This document shows positions 2,502 through 64,000 of a DNA stretch of 64,000 nucleotides, one piece after another (position 1 is the stretch's first letter; each line of letters opens with the position of its first letter). The notes under the pieces were generated by a model. That model was given only the letters and a program-made list of their open reading frames with translations. It did no database searches and was not told the origin of the DNA. The stretch covers positions 140,073-204,072 of the forward strand of contig CAWBPO010000001.1 of the NCBI GenBank assembly GCA_963790795.1. The letters run 5' to 3'. The DNA comes from an uncultured bacterium (lineage in GTDB: Bacteria; Patescibacteriota; Minisyncoccia; Minisyncoccales; RBG-13-42-11). The translations under genes were made by a program, and so were the position numbers.

Positions 2502-4248
2502 CTGCCACTCTTAAAACTTCTTCAATTGAAGTAATACCTTGGGCCGCTTTGATAAAACCGTCTTCAACCATTGTTCTCATTCCTTCCAATAAAGCTTGTT
2601 TTTGGACTTGGTCGGCGTCAGCTTCTTTTACTATCAATTCTTTTATAGTTTCAGTAACGGGCAATACTTCGTAAATGCCCAACCTTCCCTGATACCCTTC
2701 AGGGCAATCTTTACTGGCTTTGGGCCGGTAGAAAACAACGTCTTTTAATCTTTGCTTTGCCTTAATTATTTTTTCCTTTTTAAACGCTTTTTCAATTCTG
2801 TCCAAATCGCAATATTTTTTAATATTTTCTATTTCTGAATCTTTTAAATTGTATTTTTCTTTCTCGTCGCAAAGCCGCCTAACCAATCTTTGACCCAAAA
2901 TGACATTCAAAGTCGAAGAGATTAAAAACGGTTCAACTTTCATATCAATAAGACGGGGGAGAGCGCCAGCAGCTGAAGAAGTATGCAAAGTGGATAAAAC
3001 CAAGTGTCCGGTTAAAGCAGCATTGATGGCTAAACTGGAGGTTTCATTGTCTCTGATTTCTCCAACCATGATTATGTCCGGATCCTGTCTAACCAAAGAG
3101 CGAAGCCCGGAAGCAAAGGTTAAGCCGATTTTTGAATTTACCTGAGTTTGGTTGATTCTCGGCATTCTGTATTCAATCGGGTCTTCAACAGTTGAGATGT
3201 TTATGCCAGGGTTGTTCAAAATTTCCATCATTGAATACAAGCTTGTGGTTTTACCGCAACCCGTAGGCCCGGTGACCAAAATCATGCCAATCGGCTTCCT
3301 TAAATTATCCTGAAGCAATTCCAATGCTTCTCCTCTAAGGCCCAACTGCTCCAGCGTGAAAGCTTTGGCTGTTTCCGACAAAAGCCTCATCACTACTTTT
3401 TCTCCGTCAAAAACTGGCAGAACCGAAACACGAATTGAAAATTTATAATTTTCAGCTTCAACCCGGAAACGGCCGTCTTGAGGCAGTCTATGTTCATCAA
3501 GCTTTAAATTGGATAAAACTTTTATTCTGGCGACAATTCCCGAGCTGACTTGCTTAGGCAAAACCATGGCATCGCGCAAAATGCCGTCAATCCTGTATCT
3601 GACTATTACTTCCTTTCTTGTCGGTTCAATATGGATATCAGAAGCCCTTCCCAAAATAGCATGCTTTAAAAGCGTATCAATAATCTTGATTACCGGCAGA
3701 TCTTCAGCTGCTTTTTTTAAATCTTCAGCTTCCACTTTTCCTGTCAAAGTGCTTTCTTTTATTACCTTAATGCCATTGGCTTCTTTTTTTATTATTTCCC
3801 CGAATTCAGCTTCTAATGTTTTTTGGTATTGTAAAAGAACGTTTTTAATGCTTTCCGGAGTAGTCAATCTCGGCAAAATTCTAAAGTCAGATGTTTTTTT
3901 GATAAAATCAATTGTTCCCAAATCTTCCGGGTCAAGCATGGCCACTTCCAAGTCTTTTTCTTTTTTTCTGAAGGCAACGATATTGTTGGAACGGGCAATC
4001 GGCTCGGGAATAATTTTCAAGATTTCATCGTCAATCTTTTCTTTTTCCAAATCAACAAAAGGAATACCCAAGATGTAAGCTTCCATTTTAATCAGCTCTT
4101 CTTGGGAAATAATTCCTTTGGAAACCAGTATGTCTTGCACTTTCTGCCCTGTTTTTTCAGCTTCTTTCCGGGCATCGCCAAACTGCTTTTCATTAGTTAA
4201 TTTAGCGTCCAAAAGAAAAGCTTTTAATTGTTGCTGTTCTACTCTCAT
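2494..4248 (-). CDS. pilB: Type IV pilus assembly ATPase PilB (GspE family)
   Basis: 584 aa. It has an N-terminal T2SSE_N-like domain, Walker A GPTGCGKTT, and the GspE-typical DPDIIMVGEIRD and LTGHLVLSTLHT boxes. Confidence 0.9.
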   Translation of the reverse strand: MRVEQQQLKAFLLDAKLTNEKQFGDARKEAEKTGQKVQDILVSKGIISQEELIKMEAYILGIPFVDLEKEKIDDEILKIIPEPIARSNNIVAFRKKEKDLEVAMLDPEDLGTIDFIKKTSDFRILPRLTTPESIKNVLLQYQKTLEAEFGEIIKKEANGIKVIKESTLTGKVEAEDLKKAAEDLPVIKIIDTLLKHAILGRASDIHIEPTRKEVIVRYRIDGILRDAMVLPKQVSSGIVARIKVLSNLKLDEHRLPQDGRFRVEAENYKFSIRVSVLPVFDGEKVVMRLLSETAKAFTLEQLGLRGEALELLQDNLRKPIGMILVTGPTGCGKTTSLYSMMEILNNPGINISTVEDPIEYRMPRINQTQVNSKIGLTFASGLRSLVRQDPDIIMVGEIRDNETSSLAINAALTGHLVLSTLHTSSAAGALPRLIDMKVEPFLISSTLNVILGQRLVRRLCDEKEKYNLKDSEIENIKKYCDLDRIEKAFKKEKIIKAKQRLKDVVFYRPKASKDCPEGYQGRLGIYEVLPVTETIKELIVKEADADQVQKQALLEGMRTMVEDGFIKAAQGITSIEEVLRVAVE

Positions 4249-28504: not shown

Positions 28505-28564
28505 TATTCCCTCCTATTTTTCGTTAATTATATTATATACCATATTATAAATTTGTCAAGACAT

Positions 28565-43129: not shown

Positions 43130-43229
43130 ACGTTAAAGAATTCGACCTTTTCCAAGCATAAATGCTAATTATATGCTTAGTTGGTTCTATCCAGTATTAT
43201 ATTTGTCTTTAAAAAGTTGTCAAGGCCTT

Positions 43230-57688: not shown

Positions 57689-59248
57689 ATGTCCGAAACA
57701 ATAAAAGACGGACCAGGCCTAAGAGAGGGAGAGCCGACCGGAAAAAGGAAAAGAGTAGAGGAAGGAAAAAGAAAGAAAAAAACAATTGAAGAAGAGGAAA
57801 TTACTGGCGATATTCCTAAAAGGGGGAAGGAGACATTGAAACAGCCAGGGAATAAAAGAATATTTAGAAAAGAAGGGGTAGAAGTAGACGCCTCTAGTTT
57901 AGGTTTAAAAGAAATAGCGGAACTCAAAAAGAATGGCTATGTGGAAGAAGGCCCTGTTGTAAAACCTAAACCTGGCGGAAAACCTGAAAAAGGTACTGGT
58001 ACAAAAAAAGAAAAAAAAGAACCAGGGGGCGTAAGTGAAAAAAAGAAAGAAAGGAAGACACTAGAAAGGTCTAGTAAAGCAGTTGAATCCCAGGAGGCGG
58101 AGACAATCGCCAAGGCTAGTCCAGCCGAAGAAAAAAAAGAACAGAAGATTGAAACCAAAGAAAAAATTGAATTACGTGGCCCGAGAAAGGAAGATATCCC
58201 ATTTTATAAAGAAAGAATAAAGACAGGTAAAGAGAAAATTAAATATCTCAAAGAAAGACTGACTGCAGCAAAAAAACCAGATGCAGGTATTGAGAAAAAA
58301 CTTCACATGGAAGAAGCTGCAGTTAAAACAATTGAAGCAAAATTGAAAATAGCTGAAGCTGAAGAAAAGATAGGTGACAAAAAAATAGAAAAAGAGCCTT
58401 CTTCTCAAGAAGGGGAAAAGAAGCGTCCAAAAAACGAAGAGTTCAAAAAAGCTGAGTCAATGTTGGCTAGACGCTATTTAGAAAAAGGATTGACGGAAGA
58501 TGAGATTAATGAAATGCGCAGATCAATGGGCTGGAGAAAGGAAGTGAATGCTTTTTTGGCGGCCGAAAAAAGAACCCAAGAACCAACTCTTGCTGAACAG
58601 AAAACAGAGAAAACCAATAAACTAAAGGAAATCAAAGAACAGCTTATGGCAATGTATGAAGAGGCCCTGAAAGGAAAGCAAAGAAATCAGTTTGAAGAAT
58701 TTAAAGAAAATATTAATGAGGTTACCGGCGGTAAATTCGTATACGAAACAATCAGAGATGCTTGTCTAAAAAAGCTCGGCTGGGGCGTAAAATATGATTT
58801 TTGGAACAGCAGGGCCTGGCTTATAGACAGCGCAGGGAATTTTATTGATAAAAACGGAGGAGTGGCCAAAAATAAAAAAGACAGAACGGAATTTAAAACA
58901 CAGTGGAGATTTCCGACCGAAACTCCGTTTATCAAGTTTTTAATGGCGCAGGTTGAAAAGAAGCTAGGCGGAACGCAGAGTCCAGCTGAATCAAAAGTGT
59001 CGCCCGAAGAAAATATAAAACAATGGAAAGAGCATTTTGGACCTCTTGCAGAAATGCAAGAAGAAATAGAAAAATCTCAAACCCCGGTTGAATCAAAGCC
59101 ATCATCTAAAGAAGACAGAGAAAAGTGGAGAGAACAATTCGGCATTCTTGCAGAAGTGCAGGAAGAAATAGAAAGACCTCAAACGAAGAAGCCGAAATCG
59201 TTTTGGCAGAGATTGAAATCGTTTTTTAGCAGGGAAAAGAAATTTTAA
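57689..59248 (+). CDS. Highly charged K/E-rich protein of unknown function with a C-terminal internal repeat
   Basis: 519 aa, mostly K/E/G low complexity. It has one conserved-looking core (GWGVKYDFWNSRAWLIDSAGNFIDKNGG) and a tandem roughly 30-aa repeat (KQWKEHFGPLAEMQEEIEKSQT / EKWREQFGILAEVQEEIERPQT). Confidence 0.5.
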   Translation: MSETIKDGPGLREGEPTGKRKRVEEGKRKKKTIEEEEITGDIPKRGKETLKQPGNKRIFRKEGVEVDASSLGLKEIAELKKNGYVEEGPVVKPKPGGKPEKGTGTKKEKKEPGGVSEKKKERKTLERSSKAVESQEAETIAKASPAEEKKEQKIETKEKIELRGPRKEDIPFYKERIKTGKEKIKYLKERLTAAKKPDAGIEKKLHMEEAAVKTIEAKLKIAEAEEKIGDKKIEKEPSSQEGEKKRPKNEEFKKAESMLARRYLEKGLTEDEINEMRRSMGWRKEVNAFLAAEKRTQEPTLAEQKTEKTNKLKEIKEQLMAMYEEALKGKQRNQFEEFKENINEVTGGKFVYETIRDACLKKLGWGVKYDFWNSRAWLIDSAGNFIDKNGGVAKNKKDRTEFKTQWRFPTETPFIKFLMAQVEKKLGGTQSPAESKVSPEENIKQWKEHFGPLAEMQEEIEKSQTPVESKPSSKEDREKWREQFGILAEVQEEIERPQTKKPKSFWQRLKSFFSREKKF

Positions 59249-59257
59249 TTGATTAAG

Positions 59258-59283
59258 AAATCCCCCGAAAAGGGGGATTTTTC
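59258..59283. terminator. Strong bidirectional terminator between the 57689 gene and uvrB
   Basis: AAATCCCCC-gaaaa-GGGGGATTT is a 9-bp stem with A and T runs on both sides. Confidence 0.75.
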
Positions 59284-61237
59284 ATTTCCGAAGCTTTTTA
59301 ATCAGGTCGCGAATTTTAGATGCTTTTTCAAAATCCAAGTTATTGGCAGCTATTTTCATTTCTTTTTCCAACAGTTTAATGTCTTGGATCGGGCCGAACT
59401 CCATAATTGTTTCCTCTTTTTTGTTAAATGGCCAATCCCTGATTTCTTTGACAATCGCCTTGGGAATTATTTTATATTTTCTATTATAGTTTTCCTGTAT
59501 TTTCCTTCTTCTTTCGATTTCTTTAATAGCGCTTGCCATAGATTTGGTAATCTTGTCAGCGTAAAGAACAACATGGCCTTCAGAATGGCGGGCAGCTCTT
59601 CCCATGGTTTGAATTAATGTTGTTTCTGACCTTAAAAATCCTTCTTTGTCAGCGTCTAAGATTGCAATCAAAGCTACTTCGGGCAAGTCTAATCCTTCTC
59701 TTAAAAGATTAATGCCCACCAGAACGTCATATTTCCCCTCTCTTAGGTTTTTTAAAATCTGCGGCCTTTCCAAAGTTTTTATTTCCGAATGGAGCCATTG
59801 GGCTTTTATACCCTCTTCAGTCAAATAATCAGAAACAGCTTCGGCTAATCTTTTGGTCAGAGTTAAAACCAAAATTCTTTGCTGTGTGTAAACAGTGGGA
59901 TTTTTTGTGATTCTTTTTTTAATTTCTTCAATTAAATCTTTTATCTGGTTTTTTGTCGGTCTTATTTCAATTGACGGCTCCAATAATCCTGTTGGTCTGA
60001 CTAGTTGTTCAATCAGCAATTTTGATTTATTGTTCTTTATTTTTAAATCCTCGTATTCTCCTGGCGTGGCTGAAACATAAATTGTCTGATTCGTGCTTTT
60101 TTCAAACTCTTCAAATTTTAAAGGCCTATTGTCAATGGCTGAGGGAAGCCTGAAGCCGTATTCAATTAAAGTTTTTTTCCTTATCTTGTCTTGGACAGCC
60201 ATTGCCCGAAGCTGCGAGATGGTTATATGGGATTCATCAATAAAAACTAAAAAATCATTGGCATAGTAGTTAATCAAAGCATAAGGAGGGTCTCCTGGCT
60301 TTCTGAATTCCAGATGCCTTGAATAGTTTTCAATGCCGTGGCAAAAGCCGGTTTCTTTCATCATTTCCAAATCATAATTCGTCCTTTGGCTTAATCTTTG
60401 CCATTCAACTAATTTTTTCTGCTTTTTAAGATTTTTTAAATGTTCCTGCAGCTCTAATCTAATATTCTCAATGGCGATATTCAACTTTTCCTGGGGAGTG
60501 ACCCAAAAATGCGCAGGGAACAGTTTAAAAGAGTTAATAATTTTATATTCAGAACCAAGAATATCTTTTTTGCTTTTTACGCTTTCTATTTTATCTCCAG
60601 AAAATTCAATTTGCAGAATCTCTTTTCCGGTTACCGAATAAATCTCAATTATGTCGCCTCTGATTCTGAAAGTGCCCGGTTTAAAATCAATATCATTTCT
60701 TTGATATTGGAGTGAAGTTAAGTGAGCGATAAAATCTTTTCTTTTAATTTTTTTCCCTGATTTAATTTCAAGAGAAACCTGCTGGTAGTCTTCGGGCGAG
60801 CCGATATTGTAAATGCAGGAAACCGAAGCAATAATGATAACGTCTTTTCTCAATAATAAATCTTGGACTGCCGCATGCCTCAATCTGTCTATTTCTTCGT
60901 TTATTTTGGCGTCTTTTTCAATGTAGGTGTCTGTTTGAGGGATATATGCTTCTGGCTGGTAATAGTCGTAATATGAAACAAAATAATGGACAGCGTTTTC
61001 CGGGAAGAATTCTTTGAATTCCTGATACAATTGGGCAGCTAAGGTTTTATTGTGGGAAATGATTAGAGTTGGCTTTTGCATTTTTTCAATTGCTTTGGCC
61101 ATAGTAAAAGTTTTGCCAGAGCCGGTTACTCCCAAAAGCACCTGATGCTTTTCACCAGCTTTTAAGTTTCCCACCAGTTTCTTAATTGCTTGTGGCTGAT
61201 CGCCGGTCGGTTTGAATTTTGAGACAATTTTAAACAT
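59282..61237 (-). CDS. uvrB: Excinuclease ABC subunit B
   Basis: 651 aa with Walker A GVTGSGKTFT, helicase motifs and a C-terminal UVR domain (NLDFEKASKIRDLIKKL). Confidence 0.95.
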   Translation of the reverse strand: MFKIVSKFKPTGDQPQAIKKLVGNLKAGEKHQVLLGVTGSGKTFTMAKAIEKMQKPTLIISHNKTLAAQLYQEFKEFFPENAVHYFVSYYDYYQPEAYIPQTDTYIEKDAKINEEIDRLRHAAVQDLLLRKDVIIIASVSCIYNIGSPEDYQQVSLEIKSGKKIKRKDFIAHLTSLQYQRNDIDFKPGTFRIRGDIIEIYSVTGKEILQIEFSGDKIESVKSKKDILGSEYKIINSFKLFPAHFWVTPQEKLNIAIENIRLELQEHLKNLKKQKKLVEWQRLSQRTNYDLEMMKETGFCHGIENYSRHLEFRKPGDPPYALINYYANDFLVFIDESHITISQLRAMAVQDKIRKKTLIEYGFRLPSAIDNRPLKFEEFEKSTNQTIYVSATPGEYEDLKIKNNKSKLLIEQLVRPTGLLEPSIEIRPTKNQIKDLIEEIKKRITKNPTVYTQQRILVLTLTKRLAEAVSDYLTEEGIKAQWLHSEIKTLERPQILKNLREGKYDVLVGINLLREGLDLPEVALIAILDADKEGFLRSETTLIQTMGRAARHSEGHVVLYADKITKSMASAIKEIERRRKIQENYNRKYKIIPKAIVKEIRDWPFNKKEETIMEFGPIQDIKLLEKEMKIAANNLDFEKASKIRDLIKKLRK

Positions 61238-61284
61238 TCTTTTTCTTTTTATCTCAAATTCTCTTTGTTTTCAAGCCATTCGCA

Positions 61285-61313
61285 TTGACAGGCATTTTTA
61301 CCAAAGATACAAT
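61285..61313 (+). promoter_or_regulatory. Consensus sigma70 promoter TTGACA-17-TACAAT
   Basis: TTGACA at 61285-61290, exactly 17 nt of spacer, and TACAAT at 61308-61313. The hexamers are the same as in the 45760 promoter. Confidence 0.65.
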
Positions 61314-61319
61314 AAAAAT

Positions 61320-61587
61320 AGCTTTGAAGGAAACGTCTGACTACCGAAGGGGAGTTATCAAGCTAAGGAGGTCCAATGAAAACTAAATATCCGAGTATGT
61401 TCAGGGTTCTGGCCTAACGGCGAGACGTGGAATCAGCCGCTTTTAACGATGCTTAGACACTGCACCTGGCATCACGATTTATTAGAACAAGATCAAAGTC
61501 ACTGATTAAGTGGGTTTTCTCCCTTCGGAAGTTAGGCTTTCCATAAGAGGGTGGACCGATATCCATGACGTCCCCCTCTTTTATTTT
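61320..61587 (+). promoter_or_regulatory. About 270-nt structured leader or sRNA with a 13-codon ORF and a strong terminator, upstream of the Mur ligase gene
   Basis: AAGGAGG (61365-61371) is followed 4 nt later by ATG; the ORF MKTKYPSMFRVLA spans 61376-61417. Candidate helices pair 61344-61354 with 61519-61528 and 61448-61452 with 61469-61473. The terminator AAGAGGG(T)GGAC...GTCCCCCTCTT plus TTTTATTTT spans 61545-61587. Confidence 0.5.
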
Positions 61588-61627
61588 GAAGATAATTTAT
61601 CTAGAATATGAAAAGAAGAAGAAAAGC

Positions 61628-62887
61628 ATGAAAGAATTAATCAAAAAAATCACGCCTTCTTTTTTAATTAATTGGTATCATTTTTTGCTCGCTTTTCTGG
61701 GCGCTCTTTTATATCGTTTTCCCGGTAAGAAAATGATAATTATCGCTATAACCGGCACTAAAGGGAAATCAACGGTCGTAGATTTTTGCCATCGCATTTT
61801 TCATGAAGCAGGCTTTAAAACCGCTTCTCTTTCTTCAATAAGGTTTAAGATAAACAACAAGGAAAGACCGAACCTTTTGAAAATGACAATGCCGGGTCGC
61901 TTCCAAATCCAGAGATTTTTAAGGGAGGCATTGAACTGCGGCTGCAAATATGCAATTTTAGAAGTGACTTCAGAAGGAATTTTGCAGTACCGCCACAGAT
62001 TTATTGATTTTAAAACAGCGGTTTTTACCAATTTAGCGCCAGAACACATTGAAAGACACGGCAGCTTTGAAAATTACAGAAAAGCCAAGGGACAGCTTTT
62101 TAAAAACGTCAAAAAAATACATATTGTCAATTTAGACGATGAAAATGCAGAATATTTTTTAAAATTCCCTGCTGAACAGAAATATCTTTATTATATTAAA
62201 AACAAAAAGCAGGAAATCAAGCTTATTGATAAAAACTCAAAAACTTTAAAAGAAATTAAGGATATCGGGATTGATTTGAAATTATTGGGGCAATTTAATC
62301 TTTATAATTCTTTGGCGGCAATCTGTACAGGGCTTTCAGAAGGGATTAATCTGCAAAGCTGCAAGGCGGTTTTGGAAAAGATTGAAAAGATGCCAGGTAG
62401 AATGGAAATTGTTATTAAAGAGCCGTTTAAAGTGATTGTTGATTATGCTCATACTCCTGATGCTCTTGAAAAAGTTTATCTGTCTTTAAAAGAAAAAAGA
62501 TTAATCTGTCTTCTTGGTTCAGCTGGCGGCGGGAGAGACAAATGGAAGAGGCCAAAAATGGGAGAAATTGCCGCCAGTCACTGCGACCAGATTATTCTGA
62601 CTGACGAAGATCCGTATGACGAAGATCCGAAGAAAATTTTAGAGGAAGTTTTTTCCGGGATTGCAAGTTCAAAACTGAAAAAGCAAGATTCAAAAGTTTT
62701 CAAGATTTTGGATCGCCGTGAAGCGATTAAAAAATCATTAAAATTAGCGGAAAGAGGCGACACAGTAATAATCACTGGCAAGGGCTGCGAACCCTGGATG
62801 TGCGTGACAAAAGGAGAGAAAATAGCCTGGGATGATAGGCAAATAGTCAGGGAAGAATTTGAACGATTAAAGAAAAAGGAAAAATAA
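61628..62887 (+). CDS. murE: Mur ligase family protein (MurE-like UDP-N-acetylmuramoyl-tripeptide synthetase)
   Basis: ITGTKGKST P-loop, a Mur ligase middle domain (EVTSEG, NLAPEHIERHG) and C-terminal DYAHTPDAL. I set the start at MKELIKK (61628) because the track ATG at 61565 lies in the loop of the upstream terminator. Substrate specificity has not been established. Confidence 0.75.
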   Translation: MKELIKKITPSFLINWYHFLLAFLGALLYRFPGKKMIIIAITGTKGKSTVVDFCHRIFHEAGFKTASLSSIRFKINNKERPNLLKMTMPGRFQIQRFLREALNCGCKYAILEVTSEGILQYRHRFIDFKTAVFTNLAPEHIERHGSFENYRKAKGQLFKNVKKIHIVNLDDENAEYFLKFPAEQKYLYYIKNKKQEIKLIDKNSKTLKEIKDIGIDLKLLGQFNLYNSLAAICTGLSEGINLQSCKAVLEKIEKMPGRMEIVIKEPFKVIVDYAHTPDALEKVYLSLKEKRLICLLGSAGGGRDKWKRPKMGEIAASHCDQIILTDEDPYDEDPKKILEEVFSGIASSKLKKQDSKVFKILDRREAIKKSLKLAERGDTVIITGKGCEPWMCVTKGEKIAWDDRQIVREEFERLKKKEK

Positions 62888-62892
62888 TATAT

Positions 62893-64000
62893 ATGGTCGG
62901 GAAAAAGGATTTTATAGTGAACAAAATGCTCAATATATCGGGCGTACCCGCTATAAAAATAAACGACTATTTATGGGAGATACCGAAAACTTTCCGGTCG
63001 GATATGAAAGTAGCGGCAAGAGTTTATGCTTCTGAGAAGATGCTGGAAGAACTATCCAAAGATGCCTCAATCAGTCAGCTGATTAATGGCGCTTCTTTGC
63101 CCGGTATAGTCAGATACAGTATAGCCATGCCTGATTGTCACGAAGGATACAGCGTGCCCATTGGCTTTGTCGGAGCAATCAAAGCTTCAGACGGCATTAT
63201 TTCGCCTAGTGCTTGCGGATTTGACATAAACTGCGGCATGAGGCTGCTGAAATCAGAATGCGAAGAAAAGGAAGTAAGACCTTATTTGGAAAAATTAGCC
63301 AGCGGTATTCAGGCACAAATTCCTTCTGGCTTAGGTCAAGGAAGGAAGATAAAACTTTCAATCAAGCAGATAGATGAAATCTTGGAGCAGGGAGTTGATA
63401 GTTTGTTGAAACAGGGCTTTGCCGAAAAAGAAGATATTGAAAATTGCGAAGCTTCAGGAAGATTAGCTTTTGCAGATAGTAAAGCAGTTTCAGACCGCGC
63501 TAAAGAACGGGGGAGAGATCAGGTCGGCACTCTCGGCTCTGGCAATCATTTTTTGGAAGTGCAAAAAGTGGAAGAAGTTTTTGACGAAAAAGCAGCTAAA
63601 GCTTTTGGCTTGTTCAAGAATCAAGTTGTCATAATGATTCATACTGGGTCAAGGGCGTTTGGCCATCAAGTTTGTACGGATTACTTAAGAACTATGCTTT
63701 CTGCTATGGAAAAATACAAGATAAAAGTTCCTGAAAAAGAATTTGCCTGCGTTCCTTTTGTTTCTCCTGAAGGCCAGAGATATTTTTCTGCCATGGCTTC
63801 TGCTGCTAATTACGCCTGGGCTAACCGGCAGATGATTTCCCATTTTATCAGGCAGGTTTGGCAAAGTGTTTTAGGGACGAAAGCTTCACCCCTGAATATG
63901 TTGTATGATGTTGCCCATAATATTATTAAGAAGGAAAAGTACGTAATTGAAGGCAAAGAAATTGAAGTTATCGTGCATCGGAAAGGTGCGACAAGAGCTT
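62893..64000 (+). CDS. rtcB: RNA 3'-phosphate ligase RtcB (continues past the window end)
   Basis: Not in the ORF track because it has no stop in the window. My translation is MVGKKDFIVNKMLNISGVPAIKINDYLWEIP...MPDCHEGYSVPIGFVGA...GFDINCGMRLL...GSGNHFLEVQ. Confidence 0.85.
   Translation, partial: MVGKKDFIVNKMLNISGVPAIKINDYLWEIPKTFRSDMKVAARVYASEKMLEELSKDASISQLINGASLPGIVRYSIAMPDCHEGYSVPIGFVGAIKASDGIISPSACGFDINCGMRLLKSECEEKEVRPYLEKLASGIQAQIPSGLGQGRKIKLSIKQIDEILEQGVDSLLKQGFAEKEDIENCEASGRLAFADSKAVSDRAKERGRDQVGTLGSGNHFLEVQKVEEVFDEKAAKAFGLFKNQVVIMIHTGSRAFGHQVCTDYLRTMLSAMEKYKIKVPEKEFACVPFVSPEGQRYFSAMASAANYAWANRQMISHFIRQVWQSVLGTKASPLNMLYDVAHNIIKKEKYVIEGKEIEVIVHRKGATRA

Follow-up and report, generated by a model that had tools for sequence, protein, structure and literature searches.

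A probable remnant of a small membrane-protein gene cassette with a conserved 5'UTR–3'UTR helix ahead of a Mur ligase gene in a Parcubacteria-type bacterium

Results

The window analysed here is a 64,000-nt stretch of DNA from an uncultured bacterium. Near its end, a 390-nt spacer separates the divergent upstream neighbour uvrB (59282..61237, minus strand; a 651-aa ORF, with UvrB Pfam domains recorded for the syntenic genes of relatives) from a gene for a 419-aa MurE-like Mur ligase (61628..62887, plus strand; Pfam Mur_ligase_M and Mur_ligase_C) that starts with ATG at 61628. An RtcB gene comes after the Mur ligase gene. An exact look-up of the Mur ligase protein returned no record; its best homologues are 87% identical, of the Paceibacteria type, and named UDP-MurNAc-tripeptide synthetases in their sources. 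At the level of protein similarity, the Mur ligase places the window among the Parcubacteria/Paceibacteria-type CPR bacteria.

The spacer holds a compact unit on the plus strand (61285-61588), composed of a promoter, a 5'UTR of ~55 nt, a Shine-Dalgarno (SD) sequence, an ORF, a 3'UTR and an intrinsic terminator; the predicted remnant transcript is 269 nt long. The sigma-70-type promoter, TTGACA-17-TACAAT (61285..61313), was found by a consensus scan, which ranks it first in the 58-64 kb covered, with 11 of 12 consensus positions matched. A homologous site is present in the related loci L001, L011, L017, L018 and L019. Four sequences of the form TTGACA-N16-18-TANAAT are present in the window, where 0.2 would be expected, and near-consensus promoters of this kind are thus evidently in use in the organism. 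We infer that transcription of the cassette starts near 61320. The SD, AAGGAGG (61365..61371), lies 4 nt ahead of the ATG at 61376, and homologous SDs precede the full-length ORFs of relatives. The terminator (61545..61588) has an 11-bp stem with one bulge and a 13-nt loop; the hairpin occupies 61545-61580 and is followed by the T-tract, TCTTTTATTTTG, to 61588, 39-40 nt short of the Mur ligase ATG. L001, L011 and L019 carry a terminator at the same position. A simple terminator scan passed over this hairpin solely because its loop exceeds 8 nt.

Much of this layout had been laid out in an original prediction made from the letters of the window. Direct reading of the sequence bears out its promoter at 61285-61313 and its 13-codon ORF (MKTKYPSMFRVLA-stop, 61376-61417), and the 11-bp terminator with a U-tract that it placed before the Mur ligase ATG is present at 61545-61588. 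The SD is also where it was said to be, 4 nt before the ATG, but its description as the best in the window was overstated: AAGGAGG occurs 14 times there, against 11.4 expected.

We fetched DNA around the closest Mur ligase homologues and then around the sole homologues of the small protein that related cassettes encode. The spacer between uvrB and the Mur ligase gene occurs in three states: with an intact cassette, with the cassette deleted, and in the form seen in the window. Intact cassettes lie between uvrB (minus strand) and the Mur ligase gene (plus strand) in L001 (the same as L002 and L003), L011, L017, L018 and L019. These five Parcubacteria/Paceibacteria contigs share a homologous promoter, 5'UTR, SD and start codon, an ORF of 141-147 aa, a 3'UTR and a terminator, and their promoters have the same TTGACAGG -35 element together with a TAAAAT -10 element. 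The cassette is absent from L004 (the same as L005 and L006), L007, L010 and L014, all four of which have an intact Mur ligase gene and a spacer of only ~100-160 nt. L010 keeps the cassette -35 element and the 3' half of the terminator, and the other three retain the C-rich 3' arm of the terminator with its T-tract. These leftover promoter and terminator pieces indicate deletions rather than ancestral empty sites, and the loss in L010, at least, is by this comparison an independent event. Because some relatives are intact and others deleted down to the terminator 3' arm, the gene appears to be dispensable and to have been lost repeatedly. The window represents a state with both cassette ends intact and the interior gutted, in which the 5' and 3' flanks of the remnant are collinear with full cassettes. 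Pattern scans of metagenomes and genomes with the terminator/promoter block as query returned four metagenome loci and one genome locus; L014 was the single new one, and a second instance of the truncated form was not among them.

The full-length proteins start with MKTKYPNLFGILA, MKTKYSSIFGLLA or MRERFPTIFGVLA, and MKTKYPSMFRVLA of the window aligns with these N-termini. A database of 5.8 billion clusters contains only five members of this protein family, each of them at this locus, and no Pfam or NCBIfam family matches it. A PAMLSSPS motif is conserved among the 141-147 aa proteins. Their sequences suggest a Sec-type signal peptide at the N-terminus and, at the C-terminal end, a single membrane helix and a basic tail in the cytoplasm. 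As far as these features tell, the cassette originally coded for a lineage-specific ORFan small membrane protein.

In the window, alignment to the full-length N-termini identifies the short ORF (61376..61417) as the first 13 codons of the ancestral gene followed by a TAA at a deletion junction. This first deletion, of ~150 nt, is out of frame and falls after codon 13: CTGGC(C) of codon 13 is joined to (T)AACGGCGAG one base out of frame, and the frameshift at the junction creates the TAA stop. The next segment (61418..61462) is an out-of-frame remnant of the middle of the ORF (codons ~64-78, NGE-I/T-V/L-E-S/P-A...) that carries a 1-nt deletion; its local alignment to the corresponding region of L017, L018 and L019 scores 30, which 0 of 500 shuffles reach, and it had also aligned to the L001 ORF in an earlier comparison. 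Probable remnants of the C-terminal coding region follow at 61466..61510 (the FFRHxxxKF region, GTCAnnnATTAAG), as short collinear blocks that are individually not significant. The membrane-helix segment and the region of the original stop codon are gone. Since global alignment with cheap gaps over-fragments the interior, our claims are limited to blocks backed by local alignment and shuffles. Evidently, a frameshift and three to four or more internal deletions have destroyed the gene.

The two ends of the transcript are complementary. A 5' arm in the 5'UTR (61329..61354), GGAAA-C-GTCTGACT-A-CCGAAGGGGAG, pairs with a 3' arm (61519..61542), CTCCCTTCGG-A-AGTTAGGC-TTTCC, which stops 3 nt short of the terminator hairpin. 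Both arms are recovered by minimum free energy (MFE) and centroid folds, by covariation and by RNAalifold. The original prediction had seen the inner part of this helix, CCGAAGGGGAG (61344-61354) against CTCCCTTCGG (61519-61528), as a possible long-range pairing; the helix is real and extends outward to ~23 bp, with one bulged C and one A-A mismatch. The remnant RNA folds with a z-score of -3.1 to -3.3 relative to dinucleotide shuffles, and the sequence of the 5' arm occurs once in the window. In the intact mRNAs of L001 and L019 (575 nt and 583 nt), the same helix closes both the MFE and the centroid fold, spanning more than 500 nt. It leaves ~9 nt at the 5' end unpaired, and the SD lies outside it, ~10 nt 3' of the 5' arm.

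Aligned 5'UTRs and 3'UTRs of six versions of the cassette provide a comparative test of the helix. Across its 23 pairs, 92.9% of the cells form standard pairs, and six pairs are altered on both sides, as in alignment columns 36-110 (A-U/G-C/G-U), 25-119 (C-G/U-A/U-G), 30-116 (U-A/C-G/U-G) and 32-114 (A-U/G-C). Neither the observed paired fraction nor the covariation score is reached in any of 500 column shuffles; because the six sequences come from one narrow clade, shared ancestry inflates these shuffle statistics, and the double-sided changes and a slid control are the stronger evidence. In that control, sliding the 3' arm by 1-3 columns lowers pairing to 34-58%. RNAalifold, run on the same alignment, independently predicts 18 of the helix pairs. 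The G-U pairs exist on the plus strand only, which argues for pairing at the level of RNA rather than DNA. At the more distant locus L008, where the same site holds two different small-protein mRNAs, end-pairing is unconvincing: the larger mRNA has a z-score of -1.0, and the fold of the smaller contains only short AU-rich end pairs.

A second conserved element occupies the remainder of the spacer (61589..61627). It contains two -10-like hexamers, GATAAT (61591-61596) and TAGAAT (61601-61606), and its core, the 25-nt block GATAATTT(G/A)TCTAG(A/G)AT, stands just upstream of the ATG in 8 of 8 close loci, whatever the state of the cassette. It is better conserved than any other non-coding stretch at these loci, and the promoter scan picks GATAAT as the -10 element in L001. 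As the block is kept with or without the cassette, the Mur ligase gene very probably has its own promoter, with 61589-61627 presumed to supply it together with a short leader, and in genomes that lack the cassette and have an intact Mur ligase gene this block must suffice. A separate murE promoter downstream of 61587 was what the original prediction had expected to count against it; the conserved -10-like block speaks for such a promoter, on grounds of conservation rather than of mapped transcripts.

That the original prediction could not assign the RNA to a known riboswitch class agrees with our Rfam searches, in which no family reached its gathering score in the window or gave a meaningful match to 61200-61660 at E≤10. 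Rfam matches at E≤10 were noise (CRISPR repeat, snoRNA and plastid UTR families, with E-values of 0.6-5), and ARAGORN found no tmRNA. Three further identities were considered and rejected. GGGTGGAC resembles the T-box core, but it sits in the 5' arm of the terminator and not in an antiterminator, a core base is missing and Rfam gives no T-box match. A reduced RNase P RNA was suggested by a P4-like AGGTCCA/TGGCC pair, the strands of which are only ~30 nt apart in an ORF-derived region that has no Rfam match. A Y-RNA-like RNA came to mind on account of the RtcB gene, which is not called there in cassette-bearing relatives.

Discussion

We consider it likely that 61285-61588 is not a leader of the Mur ligase gene and is instead the eroded remains of a self-contained small membrane-protein gene cassette, with its own promoter and terminator and an mRNA that carries a conserved clamp of its two ends, similar to that of the Bacillus subtilis hbs mRNA. 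Full-length syntenic homologues exist in the form of five ORFs, and relative to them the frame is disrupted, as is expected of a pseudogene. The out-of-frame deletions, the premature stop and the total loss of the gene elsewhere are likewise those of an ordinary pseudogene undergoing deletional decay; what sets the window apart is a shell (promoter, SD, UTR helix and terminator) that is unusually well preserved compared with the interior. What looks like a tidy succession of promoter, mini-ORF, hairpins and terminator can thus be simply what a deleted gene has left behind. Close genomes that hold the gene whole, eroded or deleted form a natural series on the decay of accessory genes in reduced genomes.

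The well-preserved shell raises the question of whether the remnant RNA has acquired a role. With promoter, SD and terminator intact, it may well still be made. Selection could have kept the shell since the 269-nt structured RNA, or the 13-aa peptide, gained a function. All expression signals are indeed intact, 22 of 23 helix pairs are kept in the window, and three of four window-specific substitutions in the helix preserve pairing (U-G to C-G, G-U to G-C and A-U to G-U); every deletion is interior, and the fold z-score is -3.1. The intact shell and the pairing-preserving changes are compatible with ongoing selection, acting either on a functional sRNA or on a promoter that feeds the Mur ligase gene by read-through. 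On the other hand, the metagenome and genome pattern scans hold no second truncated copy, the interior can still be recognised as frameshifted ORF debris rather than a new conserved structure, and relatives tolerate complete loss. The confinement of the deletions to the interior also carries limited weight: the interior makes up ~70% of the cassette, and by our own estimate from the coordinates all three to four deletions would fall there by chance with a probability of ~0.2-0.3. Gain of function by the remnant is therefore unlikely in our judgement, and in the window the clamp is most probably no more than a survival from a gene that was inactivated recently.

That the original prediction saw here, as one of two options, an independent dual-function sRNA was half right. 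The unit is probably independent, having its own promoter and terminator and counterparts in relatives, but the dual-function ORF is a stump made by deletion. A mini-ORF that is the N-terminal end of a longer gene and owes its stop to an out-of-frame deletion is neither a designed leader peptide nor a dual-function ORF.

The other option, a conditional attenuator of cell-wall precursor synthesis, we regard as very improbable. On this view the Mur ligase mRNA would begin with the ~270-nt RNA as its leader, and a ribosome on the 13-codon ORF would govern formation of the terminator. The layout invites this reading: on one strand, a strong promoter is followed by a mini-ORF that has a consensus SD and by a terminator 40 nt short of the Mur ligase start, and GGTCCA in the SD/ATG region complements TGGACC in the terminator 5' arm. 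The strong promoter of the cassette may also feed some read-through into the Mur ligase gene. The complementarity itself is correct (GGTCCA lies at 61370-61375, one base from where it had been placed), but the 6-nt match is not conserved: the SD/ATG and terminator stem sequences differ in L001, L011 and L019, so that the proposed occupancy switch has no counterpart there, and no alternative partner for the terminator 5' arm is conserved. The unit is missing from four distinct close relatives with an intact Mur ligase gene, the supposed leader peptide is a protein of 141-147 aa in five others, and its stop codon is a deletion artefact. A conserved promoter-like block intervenes between terminator and ATG, and no leader or riboswitch of Rfam matches. 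The likeness to attenuators of the trp, pyrBI and erm types is superficial, consisting of a promoter, a short ORF, hairpins and a terminator before a biosynthetic gene; unlike those systems, the locus has no conserved alternative pairings or leader peptide, its short ORF is a truncation product, and the unit is absent from close relatives. Comparison with related genomes, which had been proposed as a check, finds the helix conserved but not the mini-ORF as a short ORF, since relatives have the full gene or none. A false lead is thereby removed: the data give no evidence of a novel riboswitch or attenuator acting on peptidoglycan precursor synthesis in this CPR bacterium.

Pairing between the ends of a membrane-protein mRNA also brings to mind type I toxin-antitoxin systems, in which long-distance 5'-3' interactions are typical of the hok and aapA mRNAs (PMC6733600). 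In that case the mRNA would be kept translationally inert by its 5'-3' interaction, and the window would hold an inactivated toxin. The small membrane-directed protein behind a strong promoter and SD, the conserved interaction of the ends and the repeated loss or inactivation of the cassette fit such an origin. The cassette shares with hok/Sok and aapA/IsoA (PMC6733600) a conserved pairing between the ends of an mRNA for a small membrane protein. Those systems, however, use the interaction to occlude the SD or to lock the 5' end; their translation is switched on by 3' trimming, and they include an antisense RNA. In the cassette, both the SD and the extreme 5' end lie outside the helix, and an antisense gene is not evident: by consensus scan there is no conserved antisense promoter and none on the minus strand within the window cassette, while candidates in L001 and L019 are at non-homologous positions with 9 of 12 matches. 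The protein, at 141-147 aa and with an apparently cleavable signal peptide, is not a hydrophobic peptide of <60 aa but about three times larger than those toxins, and the module is single-copy and found at one locus only. We give this origin slightly less credence even than the attenuator. Least credible of all is the idea that a mobile element, such as a MITE or an IS remnant, entered the spacer and that the two arms are its inverted repeats at the level of DNA: imperfect inverted repeats of 20-25 nt do surround a variable insert that is present in some relatives and absent from others, but the G-U pairs of the arms are A-C mismatches on the other strand, the arms evolve by compensatory change, their sequence has no second copy in the window, the deletions in cassette-less relatives have boundaries off the arms and leave promoter or terminator pieces behind, and the cassette is always at this single locus.

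By analogy with the hbs mRNA, we propose a role of the helix in the stability or processing of the small-protein mRNA. By pairing nt ~10-35 of the 5'UTR with the 3'UTR just before the terminator, the helix would close the whole mRNA as a panhandle. Such a clamp would shield the UTRs from the entry of an endonuclease or 5'-exonuclease and thereby set the stability of the mRNA; alternatively, a helix of ~23 bp could equally be an RNase III processing stalk. There is a small chance that the clamp is a functional RNA module which in the window has outlived its ORF as a selected mRNA-derived sRNA of ~270 nt, with panhandle clamps perhaps a common means by which CPR bacteria control the stability of accessory mRNAs. 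The helix is a comparatively supported case of 5'UTR/3'UTR end-pairing in a bacterial mRNA, from a lineage without experimental RNA biology. To our knowledge, end-pairing of mRNAs has rarely been documented beyond hbs, icaR and the type I toxins.

The closest parallel is the hbs mRNA of B. subtilis, in which 14 nt of the 5'UTR pair with a segment immediately before the terminator; compensatory mutants demonstrated this in vivo (Braun, Durand & Condon 2017, PMC5737220). Pairing of the two hbs UTRs limits cutting of the leader by RNase Y and acts on both the 5' and the 3' decay pathway (PMC5737220). The cassette resembles hbs in pairing its 5'UTR with the pre-terminator 3'UTR of a short monocistronic mRNA with a strong SD. 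It differs in the length of the helix (~23 bp interrupted by a bulge and a mismatch; 14 bp in hbs), in its source, an uncultured Parcubacteria-type bacterium, and in its product, an ORFan membrane protein whose ORF is destroyed in the window. As in hbs, complementarity of the ends immediately before the terminator is present in the window, L001 and L019, and the pairing is kept by compensatory change across the six sequences.

Small genes at the uvrB–Mur ligase spacer

The spacer between uvrB and the MurE-like Mur ligase gene, which harbors the eroded membrane-protein cassette, appears to be a hotspot of small accessory genes. In two homologous loci from more distant relatives, L008 (68% Mur ligase identity) and L020 (83%), the same site is occupied by different small ORFs, located at 2750-3990 and 1-470, respectively. 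Each of the L008 ORFs is accompanied by a promoter-like site and a terminator hairpin, and a terminator hairpin is also present in L020. The L008 ORFs resemble signal-peptide or membrane proteins.

At the uvrB border of the spacer, a TTGAAA-17-TAAAAA element can be read on the minus strand (61246-61274) directly upstream of the uvrB ATG. The block containing this element, TTTTTATCTCAAAT...TTTCAAG, is for the most part conserved among the aligned close relatives, and we therefore regard the element as probably the uvrB promoter, which would give a very short leader. At the 5' end of uvrB, L004, a related locus in which the cassette is deleted, carries a ~75-nt segment (3820-3895) with a 17-18-nt inverted repeat, AAACCCCGTTAGAAATTTT...AAAATTTCTAAACGGGGT. 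The segment is limited to L004 among the relatives compared and may be a small insertion or a MITE-like element.

Genes flanking uvrB and the Mur ligase gene

The next plus-strand ORF after the Mur ligase gene (62894-64000) was assigned, by reading its sequence, as a putative RtcB-like RNA ligase. At its position, L001, L004, L007, and L019 have an ORF of 54-64 aa followed by a radical SAM gene. On the other side, a 519-aa, extremely Lys/Glu-rich ORF (57689-59248, plus strand) is convergent with uvrB. Its syntenic counterpart in L004 is a 502 aa ORF with no match in Pfam; in L001, the ORF at this place is interrupted by the end of the locus.

Near-consensus promoters and a candidate small RNA

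Four near-consensus promoters (TTGACA-N16-18-TANAAT) were observed in the whole window, versus 0.2 expected by chance. Pattern matches include two minus-strand TTGACA-N16-TATAAT sites, at 28532-28559 and 43196-43223. Besides the cassette promoter, another TTGACA-17-TACAAT promoter is found on the plus strand at 45760-45788, 5' of a GC-rich RNA of ~140 nt with a long closing helix, GGGCUGGGGGAC...GUCCCCCCAGCCC, and a T-tract (45760-45936 including the promoter). The best Rfam match to this RNA was no better than E = 0.3; its predicted fold has an MFE of -61.7 kcal/mol (z = -5.2). The unit, flanked on both sides by minus-strand genes, is a candidate independent small RNA.
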